Source: a virus
Lineage: Duplodnaviria; Caudoviricetes
IMG/VR virus record: IMGVR_UViG_3300030372_003784
Coordinates: 1 to 50,898 of that record
Reading direction: 5' to 3' (one strand)
Length of the DNA: 50,898 nucleotides
Shown here: positions 16,614 to 41,870 of the stretch, one piece after another
Numbering within the stretch: the first letter of the stretch is position 1
How the letters are laid out: every line of letters begins with the position of its first letter
Notes under the pieces: generated by a model
What the model was told of the DNA's origin: nothing
Database searches by the model: none
What the model saw: only the letters and a program-made list of their open reading frames with translations
Position numbers and translations under genes: made by a program

Positions 16614-19600
16614 GTGTCAGAAACTATTTTTCCAGAATTAGCACCACCTACTTATTCAACACCTGAAACACCTGCAACAGCTCCTATATTAAAATTTAAC
16701 GAGTGGCAACAAACAGAAGCAGAAGGTATAGAAGATTTAAAGGATCAAGAAAGAAGCTACTTTGATTATTTTAGGTTGGAGAAATTTAAAAGGGATGAGT
16801 TAACTCCATCAACGGAAGCTGATATTAGGCAACTTTATTTTGAAAACTTAGGTGTTGAGCCTGATCTTAGTGAAGAAGAAAGATCTCAGATTGGGTTACA
16901 ATCAACGGCTTTCAAACCTTCTTTAGATCAACAAATTGAGTTAGTTAAAGGTGGGTATGGTGAAAAAGAAATTCAACCTTTTTTAGATCTCCCTGAAGTA
17001 GATCAAAACAAAAAGTTTTCTGATGCTAAGGAGATGCTAGTCCGTCGTGGTCAGTTATCCTTTGCGTCTTTTAAAAAAGATGGTAAGAGCTTTGTACAAG
17101 CAGGTAACTACGATAAGTTAAGTCCTAATGACATAAGTTTTGCAAAACAAGAAGCTTTATCAGCTATAGAAACTGGAGCTCTTAACCCTACAGACCTTTG
17201 GCAAGTATCACAGGGGCTTACTAAATCTGGTGTTGGTGAAAGGTCTATATTTCAAAATGAATTAGACCAAGACTTATTAGGTAAACTACAGGATATATTA
17301 ACTAAAGAAGCCAGTGGTGCAGAGTACCAACCTTTAACGGATGCTCTTGATGAAGTTATTACTACAAAAGATGAGAAGAGCTTTTTCAGTCAATTAACGG
17401 ATGATGACCCAACAAGTATTACTCAAGTACTTATTGATGAAGATCCTACTGGCATACGCTCTGTACAGAACACCTTGATAAGGTTGTTCAATGAGGATAA
17501 AGGGGTCACTACAAAAGCTAACTTTGAAAGAATATCTGACTCTGATGTTTACACAAGGGATAGAGTTATCACTTTAGTTCAAGAGTTAGCTGTTCGTCAT
17601 GCTAATGATAATAATGAATTTGCATATACTGATGACCCTAAAAGTCTAAAAGATAATATTCGTCGCTCACAACTAGGCGTGCCTATGGCAGACCCAAGGT
17701 TGATGATGCAGAGAGATAACTTTAAAAAATCATTGCTTCAACATCAAGGATTATCTGACGTTGAAAAAGACCTCCTTAAAAGACAAAGAGAGTTTTATAT
17801 GCTTTCAAGAGCTAAAAGGTTTGACAGCATACTTTCTGATTTCAGTGCCACTAGCGACAAATGGTTAACTTTAAAGACTTCCGATCCTGAAGCATTTAAA
17901 AATAATCCTGTTGAAGTTTTTGATGAATTTTTATCAGACGATGATAATTATAAATCTTTTCAGAATAAAGCTTTGGGTGTTGCTTCCTCTGTAAAGGATG
18001 CTCTTTTTGGTTTAGTAGCTAGTGTTGGTGCTCTTGCTGGTAATCAGAACGCTGTAGATTATTTGTTTGAATACCAAAAGGAGCAGCAAGAAAGAGCTGA
18101 GTTAGCAAATCTTTTTGGTGATGAGATGGGGACAACTTATCAGGTCTTATCTACAGCAACACCAATGATAGCTGATATAGGTATTACTACGTTGTTGACC
18201 ACAACAACGGCTATGGGTGGTGCAGGTTATGTTGCTGCAAAAACTGCGGCAAAGAAAATGGCTAAAGAATTAGCTGAGGACGTAGTTAAAGGCGTTAAAC
18301 CACCAATGACTTTTGGTAAAGTTTTTTCAAAAGAACTTACTAATAATTTAGGTAAAATGGGTTATCAAGTTCCTGCACTTACTACTTCTACAGCTGCTAG
18401 AATCTTTGGTAATTCTTATGCTACAATTTATTCTGCACTACCTGATGATCCAGATCTGAGTGCAGAAGAAAACCATCAATACAAAAGAGATCGTGCTTTA
18501 GGTTATGGTGCTAGAGCGGCTGTTGGAGGTGGTTTAATTACAGCAGCTTTTAGTGCGCTTGGTTTTGGTGGTTTTGAATCTGTCTTTTTAAGACGAGGCA
18601 CATTCAGACAGCTAAAGAATGTCCATGATAAGTTTGCTTCAAAGCTAAATGCTTCTTATGGGGGTGCTGGTATGAGCTCTGCTCAGTTTAAAAAGTTTTT
18701 AATTGATTCATCTAAACGGGTCAATAAAGAGTTGTTTGCTGGTTTAAAAGGAAAAGGTTTTATACCATTGACTTTAACTCGTGCTGCTGAAGAAGCAGTT
18801 GAAGAAGGTCTACAAGAAATTTTTATAGGCACAATGGAAGAAGCGGGACATAAACAAGATGTTCCTTTGCTTGATTTACTTCATCGTGGTTTAAATGCTG
18901 CTAAGGTCGGAGGAATTCTTGGTGGAGCGGCTTCTGCTGTTAGGTCTGGGGTACAAGCAATATCAGGTAAAGATACTTTTGTTGGAGATGCTGGTTTATT
19001 TGAAGCAGAGCAAGCACGTCTTATATCACAAGATAGAAAATTATTAAATAGGCTACGTGCAAATGATGCTAACTTAACGGCTGAGGTTTTAGAAGGTATA
19101 CTTTTATCTGCTCCTGCCAGAACAGGCACAGGTAGTGCAGATGGAACTACTACACCTACTACACCTACTACCCCCACCCAACCTGACGCAAGCCCTCGAA
19201 AACCTGATACTAATTTAAAAAATAAAGTAGATGAGGCTAAAAACAAGGAGGCTGCTGCAAAGAAAGAGGTTGAAGTTGCAGAAAAAAATCTGCAAGAAAA
19301 GCAATCTGGAACACCCCTTAAAAATAGTAAAGGTCAAAATGTAGGCTCAACAAAACAAGTTGACTCAGAAGCAGTAGAAGAAGCAGAGGAGAAACTTAAT
19401 CAAGCGACGACTAATTACAATGAAGCAGTAGAGACTCGTGAACTTGCTGAACAAGTTTATAAAGCTAGTACAACCCCATCAGAGGAAAAGGGAGATTTAA
19501 CTAAGGGAGATTTAACTAAGGGTGAGACGAAAACTTTAGAGAAGGTTGTCCCTTCTGAAGCATTAACAGAAGTATCAGGTTTATCTACGGTATTAAACCA

Positions 19601-22600
19601 GTGGCAGATCAAAAACAAAAAAGCTTTAATCACACATGGTATTAAAATCAAACCTGTTTCATCTATTAATGTTGGAAATATAGAAGATAGGACAGGTTTA
19701 GCTAGAGTTGTTGCTAATGATGATCTTAGCATAACTCTAGAAGTGAATACATCTGCTTTGTCAGGTGCCCTTAAAGGTTCATCAGATCCTTACGATACCT
19801 TTCAATCAACTATGGGGCATGAGATAATACATGCTCTTGAGTTTGTACATTTAAGGAGAGAATACTTAGCTTTAACACCTGCTCAAAGGAAACAACAATC
19901 TTTCAATAATTTTATAATCAATAGGAAAAGAGAAATTTATAATTCTATTGAGGGTTCCGAAGATATTACGGAGGATATACGTAGAGAAGTTGTTTCATTG
20001 TATTTAAACATGCCCATTGAAGATGTTGTTCTTCCTGGTGAAACCAAATACACAGCTAAGATTGAGTCTCAAAAAGATTTATCAGTTCCTGTTTACAGTA
20101 GAGTAACTAAAAAGTTTAACGCTGACCTTAACAAGGTACGTCAAAGTAAACCATTTTTTGTATCTTGGGAAGCGAGTGACTTTGAACTTAATTGGGAGAC
20201 AGAGAATAAAAGAATTGGTGAGCGTATAGATGGTAATAATATTGGTATCTACAGATACGAAACTACATTTGAGGGAGACACTAACCCAACAAAATATAAA
20301 ATAGAACTAGTTTCTACTAAAACGGCTAAAGGTGAGAAAGTTAAAGCTTGGGAATTAAAGATTACCAAAAAAGAAATTGTTGATCAGAGAGGTTTAGCAA
20401 ACACTCGTGATGTCATTGAGCCAGAAGTAAACATAACTAGAAAGTTTTTGCTACCAGAAGATGAGTTTTCCTCCAAAAGAGCTAGGAACGAAGCTGAAAA
20501 ACATATTAGAGAAAGATTAAAATTACCACCTAAAGGTAGTAAGAAAGGAAACATTGTTAACTTAAATGCTTCTGTTGTTACAACACCTTTTAACTTTGAG
20601 TTCAAATCAGAGCCACCGCACTTTGCCTTACAGACAAGGCAATTAGTACAGCGTCCTGCTAAGGTAACTGTTACTGAAGGTGTAGCTGGTGATACTATAT
20701 CTTCTCCAGAAGGAGACATTGTAAACAGAGATACCTTTGACACAAAAGAAGAAGCTGAAAAAGCTGCAAGGCAAACTGTAGATAACTTCATTGGTAAGCT
20801 TAAAGAACAAGCTGAAGAGAATGCTCGTAAAGAATTATCTGGACCACTATATACTTACACCGAAACCGAAATCAACGAGGGTTTCAGTAAAGATGAAAAT
20901 GGTAACTACAAGAATGATGAGTTCGCATCTTTTGTAGCCACAGAGTTTAGTCCTGAGCAAGAGCAACAAGTACGTGATGCTTTTGAAATTAAAGTAGATG
21001 AAAAGAAACCTCAATTAAATGAGGAGTTAATTCTTTCAGAAGCTACCCGTATGATCATTGAGGCTAGAAAGTCTGGAGATGGTAAGCTTTCTCAAGAAGA
21101 GAAGCTTATGAATAACTCTAAGTTTCCAGCTTTCCTTCAAAACATTTTAGACTTACTTAAAAGCTACGCTAGAAGAATTGCTGCTACAATATCAGATGTA
21201 CCAAAACAACTTAATGATTTAATTATTTCTGTTGAAGACATATTAGCTGATTATAATTCTAGGCTTTTAGAAGTTGAATTAAGGGGCACAGAGATGCCAC
21301 CAAAGGCAGAGAGCTTTTACTTTGCTAGATTACTTAAAGAGGCATCAGCTAGGTTGTTAGGTAAAAAAGGTAAAGTAAGACTAACAGCCGTTAACTCTGA
21401 CAAGTATCAATTTACTGGTGAGTCTGAGGATGTAACTATAGAAAGAATACCTTACGCCAACAACGTAGATTTAGGTACAACATTTCGTGTTACTAAAAAA
21501 GATCAAGATAAGTGGGTCGTGCGTAGAAATGGCAAGCCACTGATGATGCGCTTACTATCTAAATCTGAATCTATGGAGTCAGAAGTTCATGCCATCTTTG
21601 ATTCTCCTCAACAAGCATCTGTTTGGTTTGCATCACAAGAAGAATCAGACACTCCTGAGATTACATTTAATAAAGTAGAGACTGCTGATAATAAAGAAGA
21701 GCACATTTCAAATGCAGGTATAATTAGGATTGTTAAAGAAGATACTAAATTTAGACTTTATGTAGATGGTCAACTTTATGGTAGTGATACTAACACAGAC
21801 TTAAATACTTTTGATACTCTTGAAGCAGCAAAAGAAGTAGCACAGAGTGAGTGGGAGAATTTATTTTCTGAACTTGCACAACCACAGACGGCTTCAGCAG
21901 CTACGGAAGCTTTCCTTGCACGACAACGAATTTTAAAAAATATAAAGTATCCTTCTCCAAGTATTGAAGTAACAAATTTTTACAAAAACAATTCTGTTGA
22001 AGTCGATGAGAGTAAACAAGACTCTGTCTTTCCAGAAGATACTTTTAACGAAGGGTTTAGAAAAGATTCCAAGTGGCTTAAAGAAGCACCTGATCAATCA
22101 AGCAATGATTATGTAAACTCATTGCTAGTAAATTTATTGGGAGCTAAGTCTGTTAAGGAGGGAACAGTTGTAAGTTATAAACAGATTGAGTACACACCTT
22201 TCTCTGATACTAATGAAACCCCTGCAAAACAAACATCGGCTATCCTACGACATGGCAATGAAATAATTATGTTAGTCGATGTTGCCCCTAATGTTACATT
22301 ACCTTTCTATATATTCAATGGTCAACATGATAACACTGATGGCTTATTTGAAATGGGTAAGTGGTACCCATTCTTAGGTATCTCTGAGTCAGGTGGCTGG
22401 ATGTCAAAACTTGATGGGTTCAATGCTAGAAAAGGATTTGATATTGATGGCGTTAAACAGACACAGCTTGAGCTTAATAAAGCAATCCCCCCGTCTATCA
22501 TTGATGCTTCTCAAATACCATTAGCTAAATTTTCTGAGGGTAAAGAGAAACAGGAAGCAGGATTCATGACTCATGTTTCATGGATCAATGATGTTACATT

Positions 22601-25600
22601 TAATAATCTCAGACCACAGTTGGCGGTTGAAGTTGAAGAGACTGAAGAGTTAACAAAAGCTCAAAAAGCTATTGAAAAGAGGTACATGGCTGCTGTTAAA
22701 AAAGGAGACATGGATGCTGCTGACAAAGCACTATATGACTTTGCTAAGTCTGTAGGTTTTAACACCATTGCTTGGCATGGCAATCGTAAAGGGGGAGACT
22801 TCACTGTATTCGATGACGCAAAATTAGGGGATACTACAGGTTCTATCAACACAGAGTTAGGTCACTTCTTTGCTACCAGTAAAGATACAGCACAGACATA
22901 TAACAATCTGACTTTCTTCAAAGGATTTGAAACCAAAGGAGCTGACAAAGGTCTTCTTGATTCTGCTAAAGCTCTTATGAAATCAATTGTGGATGCTGTT
23001 AAAAAGTTTCCTACGATGCCAGACAACGAGAATCCTCTTTTTCGTAAGAAGTCTACTTTTACTTTTGTTGAAAAAGAAGGAACCGTTAAGTTTTTTGATA
23101 GTGATGGTAAACGTGTGCTTTCTGAGGAATCTAAAAAAAGTATAACTAAAAATGTTCTTGATCTAAACCCAATACCTGCTGGTCAAGCTAAGTCGGCAGA
23201 AGCTTTTCTGTTAGGGATACAACAATTAATGATCCTAGCTAAATATGTAAATGTTTATTCGTGGGCAGGTTCTAGGTTACTCCATCAAGCAGCGGCAAGT
23301 TATGATTTTAATAACCCACAGAGTTCGATTGCTATTGTTCCTTCTAAAGATGGAAATGTCCGACCCTTCTTCTTGAAGACGGGAGAGCAAGGAACTTTTA
23401 AGTCACCTTATTTAGTTTCTCAGAAAACTTTGCATAAGCCCCAAAGGTGGCATGCAGAAATGGCTCAGAAGATGAGGGCAGGGGAAACCGACCGTACTGC
23501 TTTTGCTACTGAAGATCCTACTACAGATGCAGGGATATCAGGGGTTAAACAGTTGAGTCAGGAGGAACTGCTAACAGCGATACGAGAAGGTGGTGAACTG
23601 AAAGGTGGGATAGGGGCTGCCAGCATAGAGAAGTCCCATATCTGGATTATTCCAGATACATCTAATATAAGGTCAGCAGATACAGTAGTAAAAGATGAGT
23701 CAGGTAACGTGATACCTCCATCCCAGAGATTTGCTTCTGGTAAACGAGACATTTATGGTAGAGACCCTAACAGAGTTGTTGTACCAGAAAAAGATTCAGA
23801 CTCTTTTTACAAATCTTACAAAAACTTACAGGTCAAGAAGGAACAAATTGAGGAAGCAGAGAGTGCAACTCCAGAACCTGTACCTACTGAACCTGTAACT
23901 CCAGAACCTGCAACAGAACCCAAGCGGGCATATGGGGATAGTGATACTAGAGATCCACTTGAATTCTTTTATAGAAGGCCAGAGCTCCATATTCTCGATA
24001 GAGCTAAAAAGGCAATCAGTAGGCTTAAAGAACAGATTAAAGAGAAGGAAGAGGAGGATGCTGGTGGTAAACCTTTGATCAAGAACAATATAGTGGACAT
24101 GGTAAGGAGAAGGCTTGGCAAACTTGAAAAGATTTTTGAGAATTTTGGTGGAAGAGAGACTGCACGTAAAGCTGTCACTAACTTTACTGAAACAGAAACT
24201 TTAGTACAAAAATACAAAGACCTTAAATCTTTACCAGATGATCAGGCAGATGTCTTTACTAATATATTGATCTTGGCTAGTGAGCTAGAATTAATAGACT
24301 TTTCACAAGGCAGACCAGAAGTCACAGAGAGCACTCCTAAAAAGGTTGAGCTACCTCCTAAAGATGAACTAGTTTCTGTTACCAAAGAACAAACACCAGC
24401 TAAAGAAACTATTTATGTAGCCCGTGTCGAGGATCAGGTTGCAGGTGAGTTTAAAACTAAAGCCGAAGCGGATGCTGGTGTGGAGGAAGCTTATCAAACA
24501 GCTTCTGAACCTGATGTTATTCCTGAAGAAGGAACCTATGAGTTGACTCCTCCTACTAGGAAAAAACCTGTGAAGGTTAAAGGGTTTGGAGCGGACATGA
24601 AGTGGTATAACGAGGAGGTAGGTGGGTGGTTCACACCTGAACCTGCATGGATGAATGCATGGTCTGCTCAGATGAAAGACCCCACTGTAGCCACTGATGA
24701 AACTGTTGAAGAAACCCCTGTCGAAACACCTTCTAAGGTTAAAGTTACGAAGATGGGTGTTGCTGCTTATGATAGAAATGTTCAAGATGGAACCATCGTT
24801 GAAAACAAAGAAGAAAAAACTTTTACATATGAGAACCGTAAATACAAAGGTCCATATCGTTACCCTAAGTCTAGTGACCCTTCTTTAATTGAAGGAGTTG
24901 AAGTTGATGAAACAGCCTCAGCACCTGCAACGATGATTCCCGAAAGAGTTTATGAGATCTCTGGTGGAGAAACCACAGCAAGTATATCACAAGATCAAGA
25001 GCGTGTAGCTCAATTAGCTAACACGGCTAAGACTTCAGCCTTACAATTTACTAATGCTGTTCAAAATGATATTGACCCTAACATTGAGAATGGGGCTATA
25101 TGGTTTGAAGTACAGGAGAAAGAAACTGTTGTTCATGTAAACCCTTATGGTATCCATGAGATTACAGATGGGTTGGCACCACAAGAAGCAATTGATTTAG
25201 TTAATGCTGAGGTTGTGAATGTTATGGCTCGTGCTTCTGCAATGAGAGCTTTATCTAATTCAGATCTTGATGCTTCTGTTGCTACAATGACTGATGCTCA
25301 ACTAGACAATTACATCGATGATGTGTTTACTGATGAAGCTAAACAAGAAGAGATTAGACAAGCATTAAATGACCCCGACACTAGAACAGAAGCTGCGAGA
25401 ATAATTATTGAAGGTCACCTTGTTAACTATAGTCTCCGTACTTTAACTGGGAGTTCTATAACTCAAGACAGACACTTCGCTAGATCTGAACCTACATTTA
25501 AAGCAGTCGTTTGGAACTTCTTTAAGAAAGTACTTACAAGGTTATACGCAGGGCAAAGACTTAATAGGGAGAATCCAACCATAGCCCTTATGGTTAATCG

Positions 25601-28600
25601 TGTAGTCAGTGAGTTAAGAGTTATTAAGGGGGGCGTTAGAGCTCAAAGGAATATAACTTTCAACCCTGATGAGCCTGACTTAGGTGGGCAAGCTTTGATA
25701 GAACAATATCAAAAAGATTATGAGACAGGTGAAGTATCAGCTCCTGCTACTACGGTTCCTGCTAGCCCAGGAGATGCCCCAACTGCACCTCAACAAGGGA
25801 GCCCTGAGGATATAACTAACAAATTAGACTTCGAGCCTGTAATAACATTACTTGAATTACCTGTAGCTGCTTTAGGTAAATACAAGAAACCTAAACATAG
25901 GTACTTTGCAGGAGAAAGAGATCCAAGGTTGCAGGCTTTATACTTACAACATAAAGGATATAAAAATTTTATAGAGGAGGCTCTTGGGCAGTTTCAAAAA
26001 GAATATGAAGACGCTGTCAATGATGTATTCCCTGACACAGAGGATACCCCAATAGGTTTACTCAGGAAAGCAATAGGTAATGCTTCAGGAGTGGAGACAG
26101 AAGAGTTTCAAGTTAGGAAAGAGGAAATAATAAATCAGTATGAAGAAGATCAAAGAGATTTATCTGAAAGGTCTTTAAGTAAAGATGAGTATAACGACCG
26201 CCTTGATGAAATTAAAAGTAGATATAAAGAGCTTATTTCAGAAGCAAAGGCTGATGTTATTCAAAATATAAAAGAAGATCAACAACAAGCCCTTGAAGAG
26301 ATTCGATCTCTTCCTAATGGTGAAAAGTTAGCTATAATACTTGAGAGATTTAGAGCTAAGATAGATAAGATGTCAGAAAAGTTTGCTGAGATGCAGGACA
26401 AAAGAAGTCCTGAACTTAACGCACACCTTACTAGTCAACTAGGTATATACATAACAAGGTCATATAAGATCTTTCAGGATGAAGGTTGGATCTCAAAAGT
26501 TTTATTCCCAGAGAATGACCGCTTTGCTCAGATCAGACAAGATGGTATTGATGGACTACGTGCCAACTATATTCCTTTAATGATTAACCGTAAGATAGAA
26601 CAGGTTGATCGGAATCCAGAAAAGTATGAAGAGTACAGTGATTGGACTAACTTAACAACTAGAGAGAAAAAAGAAGCTATAAAAAACAATAGTAAGTACA
26701 TGGCTGAGATTGAAGCTGACCTTACAAATGATGATCAATCTATTCTAGAAGACTTCATGTATTACTATCAAACAGAGGTCAATAATCAAAGAGATGGCAA
26801 TGCTATTTATTTAGATAAGAATAGATCTGTTGATAGTTTACGTCAGAAAAAATACCTACCAAAATACATAAGAGATTTGTTAGGTGAAGTAGAAACACCA
26901 GATTTCAATTTAATAAATACATTTTTAAATGTAGGTAACATACTTAATAACCATAACTTCTTTCAAAATATTATTGATACAGGTAGGAGGGGAGAAACAA
27001 TAAGTGATAGATGGTTCTTAACCCCAGAAGAACTAAGTACTCTTAGCCCTGAAGAACAGAGAACTTGGATAAGAGTAGATGATCCAAAAAATGGTATTCA
27101 AATAGGTGGAGTACAGACATCAATACCTGAAAAGAATAGGTCTGGAAGAGACCAACTTAATCCTTTTAATAACTTTATAGATACGGATGACAAACGAAAG
27201 AAACTCTTTGCTCAACAAGATACAATAGATGGTATCAACACACTTAGAAGTCAAGCTGCTGATAAGGCTAGCTTAGGCTATGCTAAAAAACTTGAGGAGA
27301 ATATTAATGGGGCTGCCCGTAGTTTAACAGGCTATGCTATGGCAGGTAAAACTTTAGGTAATGTTGGATTCTACATTAGAAATGTTGTGTCTAATATATT
27401 ATTCTTTGGTCCTGCCCAAGGATCTTTTGTGAATCCATTTAGAATTTTTAATCAGGTTAAAACAAGTAGATCTTTATACACTCCTGACTCTATTGAGGAA
27501 TACAGAGAGCTATTAAAAGGATTATTTATTATAGGTGATGATGTAACGAGTGAGGTTTTAAGTGATTTGATTAACAATAAAATCACAGAGGAATCTTTAC
27601 TTGATAGTATAGATAACACTAATAAGAAAGACCTGAATAAACTAGGTAAACTTGCAGGTAAACTTGCAGGAAAACCAATTAAGTTTTTAGCTAAACAATC
27701 AGCTTTAGTAGATTCTTTCTACAAGATTGCAAGGTTTGAAGAAGAGTTAGCAACCTTTAAGAAAGCTCAAGAGGTAGCAAAAGATGGGGATGATTTACAT
27801 GAAAAGACGCTTGGACAACTTCAAAGGCTTGCTGCTCACAAAGTCTTAGATACATCTCAGTCTTTTGTACGGACAACCCCTGCTGCTAAGGCAATGCAGA
27901 ATTCTATTCTTGGTTTGGCTGTTGTCCCCTTCGTTAGATTCTACATGGAGGTGCCAAGGATAATGTACAACACAATTAAAGTAGCTACTCAAGAGATGGC
28001 TTCTGGAAACGCTGTGTTAAAAGCTAGAGGGCTTAGAAGAATCACAGGTTTTGCAACTACTGTTGCTGGTGCTGGTTATATTGCACCATCGATATTTAGA
28101 CAGTTAGCTAACATTACTGACGAGGAAGAAGAAGTACTTAGAGAAGCCGCTCCAAACTATTCACAGACTCATACATTCTTCTACACTCGTGTCGGTGATA
28201 AACTTTTAAGCTGGGACTTTACATTCGTTAATCCTTTTGCCCAGATGACAGATGGTGGTGCACGGTTCTTTGAGTATGCTCGACGGGGTGACATGGAGAA
28301 AGCTACTGAACTGCTACTAAAAAGTTTCATTGGTGTCCCATTCCTTCAAGGTCAGATATCAACTGGAGCTATCATCGAAGCTATTAATGATAAAGATTCT
28401 TTCGGTAAAACCATTTCTAAAGTTGGTGATGGTGAGATGGAAAACTTAGCTAGAAAGTTTTTACACGTATTTGAAAGTGGCTATGAGCCACCAACTGTGC
28501 AGAGAATACGTACTAAAATGTTTGCTGCTTCAGACGCAGACAGGGAAGAATTCTTACAGACACCTTATGGAATGTTGTTAGCAGAATTCTTACCTGCTAA

Positions 28601-29039
28601 ACCATACGAGATAGACCCTAACAAAATTGCTGATAAGATATTCAGGAAGTTAAGTGCTCAGAAAGCACAACTCTCTTATGAGAAAGGTGTCCTCAAGTAT
28701 GATAGACCTTTGTCCAGAGGGAATGTAGAAGATCTAGTAGCTGATCAGATAGATGGTTTGATGACTATAGCAGACAGAGCTTTACACTACGAGAACGGAC
28801 TCAAAGCTTTAGGTGTGTCAGATAAATACTACAGGAACAAACTTGATAAGCTACTTACTAAAGCAGATGCTGCTCTCCTTAGACGCACTGGTAAGATACG
28901 CTCACCACAACTCTCCGATAGTATTAAGAAATCTATCAGGAAAGTATCTGTAAAATACCCTGATGTGGGTGACAGATTACGTCTGTGGAGAGAAGCTATC
29001 AATGAGTATGGTCAAACAATAGACGTGACAGGAGATTAA
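16614..29039 (+). CDS. giant (4141 aa) polyvalent internal virion protein with zincin (HEIIH) and ADP-ribosyltransferase-like domains
   Basis: Uninterrupted 12.4-kb ORF; Gly/Ala-rich hydrophobic segments in the N-terminal part; GHEIIHALE at about 19815; YMAAVKKGD..., WHGN...F.VFD...GHFFAT...A.TY, VRPFFLK and NIRSAD...GNVIPPSQRF match the ART-PolyVal pattern. Confidence 0.75.
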   Translation: MSETIFPELAPPTYSTPETPATAPILKFNEWQQTEAEGIEDLKDQERSYFDYFRLEKFKRDELTPSTEADIRQLYFENLGVEPDLSEEERSQIGLQSTAFKPSLDQQIELVKGGYGEKEIQPFLDLPEVDQNKKFSDAKEMLVRRGQLSFASFKKDGKSFVQAGNYDKLSPNDISFAKQEALSAIETGALNPTDLWQVSQGLTKSGVGERSIFQNELDQDLLGKLQDILTKEASGAEYQPLTDALDEVITTKDEKSFFSQLTDDDPTSITQVLIDEDPTGIRSVQNTLIRLFNEDKGVTTKANFERISDSDVYTRDRVITLVQELAVRHANDNNEFAYTDDPKSLKDNIRRSQLGVPMADPRLMMQRDNFKKSLLQHQGLSDVEKDLLKRQREFYMLSRAKRFDSILSDFSATSDKWLTLKTSDPEAFKNNPVEVFDEFLSDDDNYKSFQNKALGVASSVKDALFGLVASVGALAGNQNAVDYLFEYQKEQQERAELANLFGDEMGTTYQVLSTATPMIADIGITTLLTTTTAMGGAGYVAAKTAAKKMAKELAEDVVKGVKPPMTFGKVFSKELTNNLGKMGYQVPALTTSTAARIFGNSYATIYSALPDDPDLSAEENHQYKRDRALGYGARAAVGGGLITAAFSALGFGGFESVFLRRGTFRQLKNVHDKFASKLNASYGGAGMSSAQFKKFLIDSSKRVNKELFAGLKGKGFIPLTLTRAAEEAVEEGLQEIFIGTMEEAGHKQDVPLLDLLHRGLNAAKVGGILGGAASAVRSGVQAISGKDTFVGDAGLFEAEQARLISQDRKLLNRLRANDANLTAEVLEGILLSAPARTGTGSADGTTTPTTPTTPTQPDASPRKPDTNLKNKVDEAKNKEAAAKKEVEVAEKNLQEKQSGTPLKNSKGQNVGSTKQVDSEAVEEAEEKLNQATTNYNEAVETRELAEQVYKASTTPSEEKGDLTKGDLTKGETKTLEKVVPSEALTEVSGLSTVLNQWQIKNKKALITHGIKIKPVSSINVGNIEDRTGLARVVANDDLSITLEVNTSALSGALKGSSDPYDTFQSTMGHEIIHALEFVHLRREYLALTPAQRKQQSFNNFIINRKREIYNSIEGSEDITEDIRREVVSLYLNMPIEDVVLPGETKYTAKIESQKDLSVPVYSRVTKKFNADLNKVRQSKPFFVSWEASDFELNWETENKRIGERIDGNNIGIYRYETTFEGDTNPTKYKIELVSTKTAKGEKVKAWELKITKKEIVDQRGLANTRDVIEPEVNITRKFLLPEDEFSSKRARNEAEKHIRERLKLPPKGSKKGNIVNLNASVVTTPFNFEFKSEPPHFALQTRQLVQRPAKVTVTEGVAGDTISSPEGDIVNRDTFDTKEEAEKAARQTVDNFIGKLKEQAEENARKELSGPLYTYTETEINEGFSKDENGNYKNDEFASFVATEFSPEQEQQVRDAFEIKVDEKKPQLNEELILSEATRMIIEARKSGDGKLSQEEKLMNNSKFPAFLQNILDLLKSYARRIAATISDVPKQLNDLIISVEDILADYNSRLLEVELRGTEMPPKAESFYFARLLKEASARLLGKKGKVRLTAVNSDKYQFTGESEDVTIERIPYANNVDLGTTFRVTKKDQDKWVVRRNGKPLMMRLLSKSESMESEVHAIFDSPQQASVWFASQEESDTPEITFNKVETADNKEEHISNAGIIRIVKEDTKFRLYVDGQLYGSDTNTDLNTFDTLEAAKEVAQSEWENLFSELAQPQTASAATEAFLARQRILKNIKYPSPSIEVTNFYKNNSVEVDESKQDSVFPEDTFNEGFRKDSKWLKEAPDQSSNDYVNSLLVNLLGAKSVKEGTVVSYKQIEYTPFSDTNETPAKQTSAILRHGNEIIMLVDVAPNVTLPFYIFNGQHDNTDGLFEMGKWYPFLGISESGGWMSKLDGFNARKGFDIDGVKQTQLELNKAIPPSIIDASQIPLAKFSEGKEKQEAGFMTHVSWINDVTFNNLRPQLAVEVEETEELTKAQKAIEKRYMAAVKKGDMDAADKALYDFAKSVGFNTIAWHGNRKGGDFTVFDDAKLGDTTGSINTELGHFFATSKDTAQTYNNLTFFKGFETKGADKGLLDSAKALMKSIVDAVKKFPTMPDNENPLFRKKSTFTFVEKEGTVKFFDSDGKRVLSEESKKSITKNVLDLNPIPAGQAKSAEAFLLGIQQLMILAKYVNVYSWAGSRLLHQAAASYDFNNPQSSIAIVPSKDGNVRPFFLKTGEQGTFKSPYLVSQKTLHKPQRWHAEMAQKMRAGETDRTAFATEDPTTDAGISGVKQLSQEELLTAIREGGELKGGIGAASIEKSHIWIIPDTSNIRSADTVVKDESGNVIPPSQRFASGKRDIYGRDPNRVVVPEKDSDSFYKSYKNLQVKKEQIEEAESATPEPVPTEPVTPEPATEPKRAYGDSDTRDPLEFFYRRPELHILDRAKKAISRLKEQIKEKEEEDAGGKPLIKNNIVDMVRRRLGKLEKIFENFGGRETARKAVTNFTETETLVQKYKDLKSLPDDQADVFTNILILASELELIDFSQGRPEVTESTPKKVELPPKDELVSVTKEQTPAKETIYVARVEDQVAGEFKTKAEADAGVEEAYQTASEPDVIPEEGTYELTPPTRKKPVKVKGFGADMKWYNEEVGGWFTPEPAWMNAWSAQMKDPTVATDETVEETPVETPSKVKVTKMGVAAYDRNVQDGTIVENKEEKTFTYENRKYKGPYRYPKSSDPSLIEGVEVDETASAPATMIPERVYEISGGETTASISQDQERVAQLANTAKTSALQFTNAVQNDIDPNIENGAIWFEVQEKETVVHVNPYGIHEITDGLAPQEAIDLVNAEVVNVMARASAMRALSNSDLDASVATMTDAQLDNYIDDVFTDEAKQEEIRQALNDPDTRTEAARIIIEGHLVNYSLRTLTGSSITQDRHFARSEPTFKAVVWNFFKKVLTRLYAGQRLNRENPTIALMVNRVVSELRVIKGGVRAQRNITFNPDEPDLGGQALIEQYQKDYETGEVSAPATTVPASPGDAPTAPQQGSPEDITNKLDFEPVITLLELPVAALGKYKKPKHRYFAGERDPRLQALYLQHKGYKNFIEEALGQFQKEYEDAVNDVFPDTEDTPIGLLRKAIGNASGVETEEFQVRKEEIINQYEEDQRDLSERSLSKDEYNDRLDEIKSRYKELISEAKADVIQNIKEDQQQALEEIRSLPNGEKLAIILERFRAKIDKMSEKFAEMQDKRSPELNAHLTSQLGIYITRSYKIFQDEGWISKVLFPENDRFAQIRQDGIDGLRANYIPLMINRKIEQVDRNPEKYEEYSDWTNLTTREKKEAIKNNSKYMAEIEADLTNDDQSILEDFMYYYQTEVNNQRDGNAIYLDKNRSVDSLRQKKYLPKYIRDLLGEVETPDFNLINTFLNVGNILNNHNFFQNIIDTGRRGETISDRWFLTPEELSTLSPEEQRTWIRVDDPKNGIQIGGVQTSIPEKNRSGRDQLNPFNNFIDTDDKRKKLFAQQDTIDGINTLRSQAADKASLGYAKKLEENINGAARSLTGYAMAGKTLGNVGFYIRNVVSNILFFGPAQGSFVNPFRIFNQVKTSRSLYTPDSIEEYRELLKGLFIIGDDVTSEVLSDLINNKITEESLLDSIDNTNKKDLNKLGKLAGKLAGKPIKFLAKQSALVDSFYKIARFEEELATFKKAQEVAKDGDDLHEKTLGQLQRLAAHKVLDTSQSFVRTTPAAKAMQNSILGLAVVPFVRFYMEVPRIMYNTIKVATQEMASGNAVLKARGLRRITGFATTVAGAGYIAPSIFRQLANITDEEEEVLREAAPNYSQTHTFFYTRVGDKLLSWDFTFVNPFAQMTDGGARFFEYARRGDMEKATELLLKSFIGVPFLQGQISTGAIIEAINDKDSFGKTISKVGDGEMENLARKFLHVFESGYEPPTVQRIRTKMFAASDADREEFLQTPYGMLLAEFLPAKPYEIDPNKIADKIFRKLSAQKAQLSYEKGVLKYDRPLSRGNVEDLVADQIDGLMTIADRALHYENGLKALGVSDKYYRNKLDKLLTKADAALLRRTGKIRSPQLSDSIKKSIRKVSVKYPDVGDRLRLWREAINEYGQTIDVTGD

Positions 29040-31977: not shown

Positions 31978-31999
31978 ATATTATTTGTGTTTAGGTTAA

Positions 32000-32119
32000 T
32001 AAAAAGAGTGCACCCTCATGGTTTGATTCAGGTGTTCAAATGACTAGTAAACCTAAAAACCAGTCGTTCGGAACTCTCTTCCGACTCTATTCCTGAATCA
32101 AACCAAGAAGGTGCACTCT
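32000..32119 (-). ncRNA. candidate structured RNA (long stem closing a three-way junction, followed by a U-tract)
   Basis: Outer stem of about 28 bp between 32005-32032 and 32092-32119, with one G-U and one mismatch on the minus strand; two inner hairpins (TCGGAA/TTCCGA and GACTGGT/ACTAGTC); U-tract directly 3'. Confidence 0.6.
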
Positions 32120-32158
32120 CTGTGAATCTATTGAATACCTACTTAGTTTTCAATGCTT

Positions 32159-36673: not shown

Positions 36674-36713
36674 AAAAAGAAAGCCACACCCCTAGCCGTA
36701 AGGAGTGTGGCTT
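36674..36713 (-). terminator. intrinsic terminator after the DUF932-like gene
   Basis: AAGCCACACTCCT-loop-AGGGGTGTGGCTT followed by TCTTTTT on the minus strand. Confidence 0.8.
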
Positions 36714-39167: not shown

Positions 39168-39272
39168 TTTACTTTCTTTTGTTATTCAATAATAGCGTTT
39201 TGCTATCCAGTTACATCAGTATAACTGGCACTCATCCACACCAAGGCACGTCCCTGAGTGAACGAGGGTCAG

Positions 39273-39494
39273 TCATACTAACTCACGAATCTCATCTAAT
39301 GTGAACATCTTCACTTCATCCAACACAGTATCATCAATCATCAAGTTTTTGTTCATACGGTCTTGTATCAACAAATGAATCTTGATCAAGTCATACCTCT
39401 CTTCTTTAGGTAAATCCCAAGAACAACAGTCCTTTAGATAATCCTTACGGATACTTAACTTTGTTGCATCACCAACATTTGTATATTCTATCAT
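39273..39494 (-). CDS. hypothetical protein
   Basis: GAAAGTAAAATG leader; first gene after the long structured tract. Confidence 0.6.
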   Translation of the reverse strand: MIEYTNVGDATKLSIRKDYLKDCCSWDLPKEERYDLIKIHLLIQDRMNKNLMIDDTVLDEVKMFTLDEIRELV

Positions 39495-39986
39495 TTTACT
39501 TTCTTATGCTTTCACCAGATGCATTAATCACCTCGACTAATACACCTGTCGAAAGCATGACACCCTTACGGATGCCATGCTCGTGAACATCATGCTTTCA
39601 TGTCGTGCTACATATTACATGATGCAGGTTGCACGTTACAAAAGATCACAAAACAGATTCTTTCTCCTAGTTACTTGTTAAGGTAACAGACTCAGGCAGA
39701 GCATAGATCATTCCTAGTTATTCCTGCTATTGATTGTCAGACAAATGACGGCAGACCGTAGAACAAAATAGCTTCACACTCCACTCCAGTTGTATGCTGG
39801 CATGGGTTTAGCTCAGGTCATTTCGGGCAGTCTATCGACTTGATAAACTGTATGGGATGGACTTGTCAAAAGTCCAATATCGCTTGAAATGGTATAGCTT
39901 GAAGTGTCGTAACATTCCAAGTCTATAGAGCATTTGATTCTGTTAATACAAGCTAGAATCTCATAGCCATTATTGATAATCAATTA

Positions 39987-40086
39987 TAGTGACGTATCAC
40001 TAATTGAATAATGGCACTGGTAGGATATTGACGTATCAATATATGATTAAGGATTGCGAGATTAGATATTGACGTATCAATATCTA
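39987..40086. repeat. three palindromes with identical core TGACGTATCA
   Basis: Cores at 39990, 40029 and 40070 (spacing 39 and 41), each extended by self-complementary flanks. Confidence 0.9.
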
Positions 40087-40100
40087 GATCTAGTCACCTA

Positions 40101-40150
40101 TTACCAGACATCAAATTCAATTAACTAGGGTTGAATTTGATGTCTGGTAA
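40101..40150. repeat. perfect 20-bp inverted repeat; one arm recurs at 40510-40528
   Basis: TTACCAGACATCAAATTCAA-N10-TTGAATTTGATGTCTGGTAA. Confidence 0.9.
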
Positions 40151-40155
40151 CAAAT

Positions 40156-40192
40156 AAAAAGGGGGTAGAAGCTATTAAACTCCTACCCCCTT
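40156..40192 (-). terminator. intrinsic terminator after 40201-40563
   Basis: AAGGGGGTAGGAG-loop-CTTCTACCCCCTT followed by TTTATT on the minus strand. Confidence 0.8.
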
Positions 40193-40200
40193 AATTTGTT

Positions 40201-40563
40201 TTAGTCCATTAATGACTGTATAACTTCAATAGCATTTTCTAAGTTATTAGGCTTAGAAAGCTCAAACCATTTCTCATAACGAGCCTTGTATTTGATAGCC
40301 ATTTCCAATTCCTTGCCTTCTAATTCCCATTCAGTTTTAGCTTTAAACTTCAACTTTCCATGTCCTTCTGTAACTGTGGTTTTTGTATATTTATCTGCTA
40401 CTTCTATTCTTACAGTAATGCCAAGTTTCACACACTCTTTATGAGCATTTGCTTTCTGAACATTTACTTTCTGTTTAGCTTTCTCAATATTAATTAACTT
40501 TGTAAGGTCAATTGAATTTGATGTCTGGGCTTCTACTACTACTTCGTTTTCTAATGTTTCCAT
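40201..40563 (-). CDS. hypothetical protein, first gene of the leftward early arm
   Basis: 120-aa ORF with its own promoter candidate and terminator. Confidence 0.7.
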   Translation of the reverse strand: METLENEVVVEAQTSNSIDLTKLINIEKAKQKVNVQKANAHKECVKLGITVRIEVADKYTKTTVTEGHGKLKFKAKTEWELEGKELEMAIKYKARYEKWFELSKPNNLENAIEVIQSLMD

Positions 40564-40627
40564 TTTACTATTTTCTAGGTTTATTTTGTTTATTATATGA
40601 ACTACTTAGATTTCATTCACTGCAATC

Positions 40628-40655
40628 AATATACACTATGTTTACTTATTGTCTA
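40628..40655 (-). promoter_or_regulatory. putative leftward early promoter
   Basis: Minus strand TAGACA-N16-TATATT; same -35 hexamer as the candidate at 10590. Confidence 0.4.
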
Positions 40656-40842
40656 GTTCTTTAGGTTTATAAGGGTAATATTGATAATATCTATTAACCC
40701 TATTTTTAAAGGCTAATTTGCATCATGAAACGTGCTGAATGTTACATAAGTCCTTGATCCTGAAGCAGTTGACACGCCACCCCTACACCCCCTATTTTTT
40801 TAGACACGCTCCGTATACATATATACACGTGTATGAAAAAAT

Positions 40843-40871
40843 TTGACACTTTTAAATGATGTGGGCATCAT
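40843..40871 (+). promoter_or_regulatory. putative rightward promoter
   Basis: TTGACA-N17-CATCAT ending 5 nt before ATG 40877. Confidence 0.4.
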
Positions 40872-40876
40872 GTTGC

Positions 40877-41143
40877 ATGGATAAACTTAAAAAGAAGGAG
40901 TATTACATTAAAAACAGGGACAAAAGATTAACGTATCAGAAGGAATATTATAAGATTAACAGGAAGTTAATAGAGCGCAGAAAGGAGCTCAAGCGAGCAG
41001 AAGACCCAAATTGGGCAGAGAGACAACGGCAATACAACAAAAATTACTACTCTAGAAACAAAGATCGGATAAAAAAGCAAAGATCTGAATTTAAAAGGAG
41101 CAAAAATGCACTTTCTAAAAAGTCGGATGCAAAAAAGACTTAA
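40877..41143 (+). CDS. basic helical hypothetical protein
   Basis: Repeated KEYY.KNR.K-type motif as in N-termini of phage HNH proteins, with no nuclease domain; start set at ATG 40877. Confidence 0.65.
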   Translation: MDKLKKKEYYIKNRDKRLTYQKEYYKINRKLIERRKELKRAEDPNWAERQRQYNKNYYSRNKDRIKKQRSEFKRSKNALSKKSDAKKT

Positions 41144-41825: not shown

Positions 41826-41870
41826 CATTAGCCCTTGAAGCATTGGAAAAAAGCTTTAAATTTAACATAC

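Follow-up and report, generated by a model that had tools for sequence, protein, structure and literature searches.

A structured, gene-free spacer ending in a conserved stem in the predicted early operon of an uncultured marine phage

The window analysed here is the whole stretch of 50,898 nucleotides that makes up IMG/VR record IMGVR_UViG_3300030372_003784, a Caudoviricetes genome that CheckV rates as 84% complete and whose ends are undefined. The record occurs in marine metagenomes, whole or partial in 20 rows from 13 studies, six of which hold at least half of its words; no RNA dataset is among those listed. It encodes a terminase, a family A DNA polymerase, a helicase and an endolysin (Pfam, PHROG). 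A 751-aa protein at 41835, which has no family hit, is read as the portal on account of its size and position. It has 55 relatives in IMG/VR at 60–77% identity and no match among 50,697 named phage records, and on this ground the phage is not T7-like. A 4141-aa protein (16614–29039) has no Pfam or PHROG family; six of seven RNA polymerase catalytic patterns are absent from it, in a record 84% complete, and near residue 1069 it carries HEIIH, a metal-protease-like motif.

A minus-strand run of small genes extends from 40563 down to 29036, which we infer from its gene content to be the early operon. The cumulative GC skew turns near 40500–41000, and a non-coding motif at about 40770–40850, kept across many relatives at the early/late strand switch and close to the skew turn, is a candidate packaging site, genome end or origin. 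A sigma-70-type early promoter (TAGACA-16-TATATT, 40628–40655, minus strand) is predicted by a consensus scan, a method that yields no more matches than it does on shuffled sequence; a 10/12 consensus promoter is present at the same place in one distant relative (L002). The motif AACCTAR recurs on the minus strand in A-rich leaders ahead of early starts (40667, 40581, 38175, 37884, 36671, 34820 and 31997) and also ahead of the first genes of the relatives L001, L002 and the L036 group, where it may be a translation or promoter signal.

The first early gene (40201–40563) encodes 120 aa of unassigned function. Twelve homologous proteins were found, and the protein has no PADLOC, Pfam or PHROG family and no Atlas feature match; its structure model (pLDDT 68) has no Foldseek match at E 0.001, the best match with VIA (Z 6.4) being to generic helices. 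Querying viral contigs with the 120-aa and 377-aa proteins gave no neighbour proteins.

Between this gene and the next (39273–39494, minus strand, 73 aa, no Pfam or PHROG family) lies a gap of 706 nt (39495–40200), the longest in the window when gaps are defined between ATG-started ORFs of at least 55 aa. The lack of ORFs that the earlier note had seen at 39495–39960 is thus real, and the tract is larger than first stated. The longest ATG frames inside it encode 33 aa (minus strand) and 34 aa (plus strand). The sole TTG frame noted there (56 aa, 39983–39813) is still open in a close relative, L182, has no ribosome-binding site ahead of it, and has no counterpart in L001 or L002. The tract of the window holds no minus-strand consensus promoter, and a TATAAT at 39988–39983 was rejected as one because L182 loses the motif. 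Across four DNA runs the single tract variant was A39703G, in one contig at a depth of 2.8. Of four RNA runs, X22 gave five contigs of 155–272 nt, all in coding parts, and the other three gave none, which is uninformative on transcription of the tract.

Read in the direction of the early genes, that is, on the minus strand, the tract is a succession of hairpins. An intrinsic-terminator-like hairpin with a U tract (40151–40192) directly follows the 120-aa gene, and is succeeded by a 20-bp perfect inverted repeat (40101–40150), which can be assigned to neither strand. Then come four hairpins with UACG loops: R1 (40063–40086, 10 bp), R2 (40025–40042, 7 bp), R3 (39966–40015, a long irregular stem) and R4 (39893–39927, 14 bp). 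The last is the long UACG-capped stem that had been counted as part of the tract while the palindromes beside it were set aside; it is a fourth copy of the same motif, and the palindromes belong to the element. Two short hairpins follow, at 39876–39858 (7 bp, p 0.94) and 39850–39828 (9 bp, p 0.98), then a weakly folded middle (39650–39825) with one small hairpin (39805–39781), and then a 14-bp hairpin with an internal loop and three G-U pairs (39587–39625, p 0.96), which is strand-biased. The tract closes with hairpin A (39553–39582, 13 bp, with a GUAA loop of the GNRA type), which abuts hairpin B (39506–39558, 22 bp), a predicted processing or protein-binding stem. Immediately beyond lies AGAAAG (39499–39504), the likely ribosome-binding site of the 73-aa gene; the same AAGAAAGTAAAATG also stands ahead of 39167.

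All the pairing arms named in the earlier note sit where it placed them, and five of its nine stems hold. The GGACUU/AAGUCC (p 0.94) and CAGUUUAUC/GAUAGACUG (p 0.98) stems are firmly predicted, the UACG stem (39927–39893) and the CCAG/CUGG stem are present in the centroid, and the GUAA-capped stem is well supported (p 0.75) with 13 bp instead of 11. The GAUUCU/AGAAUC stem is weak (p 0.37). GUUAC/GUAAC is missing from the centroid, CGUGC/GCACG would cross the stem at 39625–39587 (p 0.96), and UCGAC/GUCGA is displaced by hairpin B, the strongest structure of all (39558–39506, upper helix p 0.96), which had been overlooked. A helix closing the 5' end of the tract on its 3' end has a p of about 0.4.

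The minus strand of 39490–39990 folds at −143 kcal/mol (z −3.21), a value equalled by none of 100 shuffles; the plus strand has a z of −2.22, equalled by two of 100. Both ends fold well on the minus strand, with z −6.4 (plus, −1.6) for 39500–39640 and −4.3 (plus, −2.8) for 39825–39930, but the middle, 39650–39825, does not (z +1.4; plus, −0.2). Twenty same-strand coding windows had a mean z of −1.1, with one as low as −4.7, so only the ends of the tract stand out. The strand-consistent G-U pairs claimed earlier are found in the 3' hairpins and at 39850–39828, but not in the UACG hairpins or at 39876–39858. Accordingly, the 3' hairpins are far more stable on the minus than on the plus strand (−28.9 against −14.4, −21.2 against −10.5 and −13.4 against −8.3 kcal/mol), while R1–R4 fold equally on both.

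A metagenome scan with the 73-aa gene returned four loci, two of which are this phage. L181 is identical across the tract. L182 shares 97% identity with the window as a whole but diverges in a block that runs from about 40660 to 39887, in which the promoter boxes are retained except for one change in the −10 box. The part at 39886–39495 is unchanged in L182 and so carries no selection signal. In 40200–39887 there are 40 differing columns, 37 of them substitutions, and seven of the 40 fall within the interval first described. The block 40200–39870 nevertheless folds as well in L182 (−115.8 kcal/mol) as in the window (−110.1 kcal/mol), whereas placing the same substitutions at random sites gives −78.1 kcal/mol (sd 7.1), with none of 300 trials as good. 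Pairing in the upstream half of the tract is under selection.

Individual changes show how the pairing is kept. The terminator-like hairpin has a compensatory change from G-C to A-U, both arms of the 20-bp inverted repeat are altered together, an A-U of R1 has become G-U, and R3 is remodelled with its pairing retained. R4 has four changes, of which one gives a U-G, one mends a mismatch and two jointly open a G-U, at an unchanged energy of −9.8. One C-G of a weak long-range helix has become U-G, and two changes lie outside firm stems. Three one-sided changes yield G-U pairs on the minus strand.

The 120-aa gene lies in a recombinant block (L182:1830–2610) and is 53% identical in a phage that is otherwise 97–99% identical, so the gene has been swapped or is under fast selection. 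One arm of the inverted repeat also matches 40507–40528 within this gene at 17 of 17 positions, against a chance mean of 0.26 for matches with three or fewer mismatches; the match decays in L182 and is possibly a relic of template switching or conversion. An antisense role of the arm at 40125–40104 against the 120-aa gene was dropped, with about five of 22 pairs lost in L182.

More distant relatives were sought in 49 whole records, drawn from the loci of the 55 relatives. Two of these, L001 and L002, hold the terminal motif of the tract, and the same two hold a homologue of the 120-aa gene, at 33–35% identity; the other 47 have neither the gene nor the stem. The window, L001 and L002 have a common layout, in which four copies of a tetraloop hairpin follow the homologous gene and two adjoining hairpins close the tract, 10–25 nt ahead of the next ribosome-binding site; the invariant stem ends 1–20 nt from that site. 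The gene downstream of the stem differs in L001 and L002. The whole element spans 700–920 nt, the tracts differing in length by 140–220 nt. Across all viral contigs the terminal motif was found at 44 loci and the stem is formed only in L001 (−27.0) and L002 (−29.6), the other 42 giving −2.9 to −17.5; none of five prokaryote loci forms it.

Whole-tract global alignment to the window gave z 3.3 for L001 and 6.8 for L002, compared with −1.7 to 0.6 for eight syntenic control tracts. With the terminal stem removed the values were 1.7 and 3.5, and for the middle alone −1.0 and 0.1. A profile built from L001 and L002 did not find the tract of the window, so homology rests on motifs, layout and the global alignment. 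The two-sequence consensus fold had no broken pairs, as its construction ensures, and this was given no weight.

The terminal stem has 18 pairs in the alignment of the three, of which nine are invariant, five double-changed, three changed on one side and one broken once. Overall 98% of cells are paired, compared with 28–46% in slid controls, in an alignment that was built by choice around the shared motif; the covariation rests on four lineages and is not a formal covariation statistic. The base of hairpin B, CUUUC-GA-CAG paired with CUG-GU-GAAAG, is invariant, and its top covaries; the hairpin has 22 bp in the window and 18–20 bp in L001 and L002. At the place of hairpin A both relatives form a stem of different sequence. 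Each of the three sequences pairs over 12–14 bp there, but a shift of the window's stem makes the alignment poor (82% of cells paired). A short motif similar to the hairpin at 39587–39625 can be seen by eye in both.

The repeat hairpin occurs in exactly four copies in each lineage and nowhere else in each record, with a short-short-long spacing (41/39/85, 50/57/88 and 50/58/106 nt). The loops UACG, CCCG and UCCG fit UNCG or YNMG (PMC5311481). In L001 and L002 the repeats have a fixed core with a 2×2 AA/GG loop, and their outer stems swap CAAG and CUUG between copies, which an RNA hairpin would explain better than a DNA palindrome. Between L001 and L002 there are 17 compensatory pairs on either strand, so that the count does not pick a strand; the energy is better on the early strand (−301.5 against −280.6). 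Neither relative has a minus-strand terminator in its tract, including the position of 40151–40192, so the tract there is likely to lie inside the first transcript.

Searches for a known RNA returned none. Infernal found no match in the window to any Rfam family at the gathering score, including SRP, 6S, group I and II introns, GOLLD and ROOL, and ARAGORN found nothing, in agreement with the earlier impression that the tract is not a tRNA, tmRNA, RNase P or group II intron. With Rfam thresholds relaxed to E 10, one chance match of 16.5 bits touches the tract. A likeness to group I introns, noticed by eye, was dropped, as RF00028 gave nothing at E 10 and there is no split gene. The L002 tract matched only miRNA-type hairpins, below threshold. 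Nucleotide searches with nhmmer and blastn, over 55 and then 179 loci, found no match below E 0.6 outside the phage's own genome. INPHARED gave two chance matches of 25–29 nt, a 16-mer search gave one unrelated match, a loose stem pattern gave at least 120 chance loci (about 530 estimated), and a covariance model run over the 49 records found only its three training sequences. No published description of such an element was found in the literature searched. Fremin, Bhatt and Kyrpides (2023) describe candidate structured RNAs of phages, with a mean length of 67 nt (29–151) (PMC10690425). These resemble the present element in covarying, in being intergenic and ahead of phage genes and in coming from IMG/VR, but it is far longer at 700–920 nt; the three contig names and the core motif are absent from six of that paper's supplementary files. 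The covariation in relatives, together with the lack of an Rfam match, supports a selected minus-strand structure in the early region, and the element is a real, uncatalogued one, a structured early spacer that belongs to no Rfam family.

Folding is seen in six further early intergenic gaps longer than 25 nt; in four of these it takes the form of a single long hairpin ahead of a start, in one case of 31 bp with seven G-U pairs. Between the 73-aa and 60-aa genes, 39209–39286 (minus strand) forms an irregular 31-bp stem (−37.7 kcal/mol, z −5.4 compared with −1.7 on the plus strand), a candidate for a second processing site, and a 181-nt gap at 31978–32158 (minus strand) forms a stem of about 28 bp enclosing two hairpins (z −9.8). 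Many other relatives have ORF-free tracts of 0.3–1.4 kb at this place, of unrelated sequence, and several of these finish with covarying hairpins ahead of the first start. It is thus normal in the group for the early operon to open with a long, structured non-coding region, the sequence of which turns over. In L036 (5549–6918), L037, L045, L012 and L050 such tracts are AT-rich, 1.0–1.4 kb long and rich in repeated palindromes, and end in two covarying hairpins ahead of the first gene. A different element of about 280 nt occupies the same place on the minus strand in L005 (5905–6290), L006 (5945–6290), L007 (5940–6330) and L043 (5410–5720). It has several covarying hairpins, a multibranch that a conserved helix closes, and strongly conserved unpaired motifs, with ten of 43 pairs double-changed; it has no Rfam match, is not alignable to the window and, compared with the tract of the window, more closely resembles a compact RNA family.

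The tract is non-coding, its pairing is selected, its layout is common to two distant relatives, and its last stem has a fixed base beside a ribosome-binding site. The reading we favour, tentatively and by analogy with T7, is that it acts in cis as a folded spacer within the early transcript and that its last stem would be an RNase III-type processing site. T7 transcripts are processed by RNase III (PMC6938266). Substrates of the enzyme typically span two helical turns, and internal loops in them can confine cleavage to a single strand, so that a protective hairpin remains (PMC1540722). Hairpin B, with its 22 bp in the window and 18–20 bp in L001 and L002, agrees with the rule that a substrate has about two turns of helix, at least 11 bp of it beside the cut, with small loops allowed (PMC1540722); the rules for proximal and distal box pairs are those of E. 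coli and take their register from the cut site. It also lies between early genes and ahead of a ribosome-binding site in three lineages, on a transcript that is itself predicted. Like the T7 sites, it is a long, irregular stem between genes of an early operon that host polymerase would transcribe, it stands shortly before a ribosome-binding site, and its two or so turns are interrupted by a small internal mismatch; unlike them, it ends a spacer of 700–920 nt with four repeat hairpins. Processing is the simplest known role of such a stem, a reading that we put a little short of even odds, and a stem that stays fixed ahead of a ribosome-binding site, while the gene behind it changes, was counted in its favour.

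Under this processing model, host RNA polymerase would transcribe leftward from 40655 through the 120-aa gene and, by terminator read-through, the tract. The four repeat hairpins could be docking sites for one protein, possibly the 120-aa product, whose docking would tune read-through or stability. Hairpin B, with its two helical turns or so, fixed base and small mismatch, would be cut as in T7 early transcripts, freeing the next ribosome-binding site; after this cut by a host RNase III-type enzyme, the message downstream would begin at a defined and protected end. The earlier note had proposed an undescribed early structured RNA, as decoy, antitermination element or large leader; the structure and the minus strand stand, and of the three options the large leader is the best fit. 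The case for one large RNA standing alone is weaker, as the middle folds no better than chance and is unalignable, the lengths differ by 140–220 nt, and the only sequence-invariant piece directly precedes the ribosome-binding site. The processing model has its own difficulties. A terminator-like hairpin lies directly upstream and no consensus promoter lies inside the window's tract, R1–R4 fold equally on both strands, and no other intergenic stem in the window repeats the invariant base of hairpin B (next match 16 bits, compared with 84.6), where sites of one enzyme might have it in common. A length of 700–920 nt and four repeats go far beyond what a processing site needs, and that the model explains neither keeps two further explanations alive.

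In the first, which we consider doubtful, processing at the long stems at either end would free the tract as a stable RNA of its own, which would work in trans as a decoy, its four repeats soaking up a host or phage RNA-binding protein. The invariable number of repeats, their spacing in all three lineages, and the long stems that bound the tract at both ends would suit such a role. CsrB and RsmZ are repeat-hairpin decoy RNAs with GGA loops, and likewise bear a small hairpin in multiple copies on a single RNA; the loops here are UACG or YNYG, the repeats vary by lineage, and no Rfam match is better than E 9.5 (CsrC). A fixed host target would resist such variation in repeat sequence. There is also no conserved global fold, the middle being unalignable and no better than shuffles, and the closing helix is weak (p about 0.4). 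The perfect co-occurrence with the 120-aa gene in two of 49 records is in keeping with a decoy but may be simple linkage. It is conceivable, though on present evidence we would not expect it, that protein and tract form an RNA–protein module, the protein binding repeats that are cut free, so as to control early transcription or to decoy a host defence or RNA-binding protein, with the repeat sequence shifting with the protein lineage.

In the second, which is unlikely, hairpins A and B would be a nascent-RNA antiterminator like HK022 put or, together with the repeats and the 120-aa protein, one like lambda N and nut, carrying polymerase past the terminators of the early operon. The put sites are about 70 nt long with two stem-loops and lie downstream of early promoters, putL adjacent to its promoter and putR about 270 nt away (PMC9378689). 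Hairpins A and B match them in size, as two abutting stems of 77 nt (39582–39506) with a fixed base on an early transcript, and terminator-like hairpins lie downstream at 36713–36681 and 38167–38128. They do not match them in position, since a put site lies within about 270 nt of an early promoter and before terminators, and A and B lie about 1050 nt from a promoter that is only predicted, behind the first terminator. There is a single copy, hairpin A keeps no sequence, and the place beside a ribosome-binding site is explained without antitermination.

It is less probable still that the palindromes act as DNA, either as operators of a phage regulator or, close to the genome end, as single-stranded or cruciform DNA that signals injection, replication or packaging, although this may hold for R1–R3 alone. 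R1–R4 and the 20-bp repeat favour neither strand, whether taken as RNA or as DNA; the skew turn and the conserved motif at about 40770–40850 lie nearby; and other relatives have repeated palindromes of their own here. T5-like phages provide a precedent, as a non-coding region of theirs carries an injection stop signal (PMC10644984). Against this, there is covariation between arms 30 nt apart, the AA/GG loop of the L001 and L002 repeats is asymmetric, and G-U pairs give the 3' hairpins a strong minus-strand bias. N4-type hairpin promoters require a virion RNA polymerase in the genome, and in this 84% complete record the 4141-aa protein, which lacks a family hit and six of seven catalytic patterns, offers no clear sign of one. 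That the tract is small genes or decayed filler, a view that the open TTG frame and the identity of 39886–39495 in L182 might suggest, is already largely refuted and very improbable, given that this frame lacks a ribosome-binding site and counterparts and that the L182 substitutions track base pairs.

The structured element occupies the point where infection is first controlled in a large group of uncultured marine phages. As a processing leader it would extend a known theme; if the four hairpins and the 120-aa orphan protein pair with each other, it would be a new early switch or decoy, which can be tested with that protein and a 30-nt RNA.
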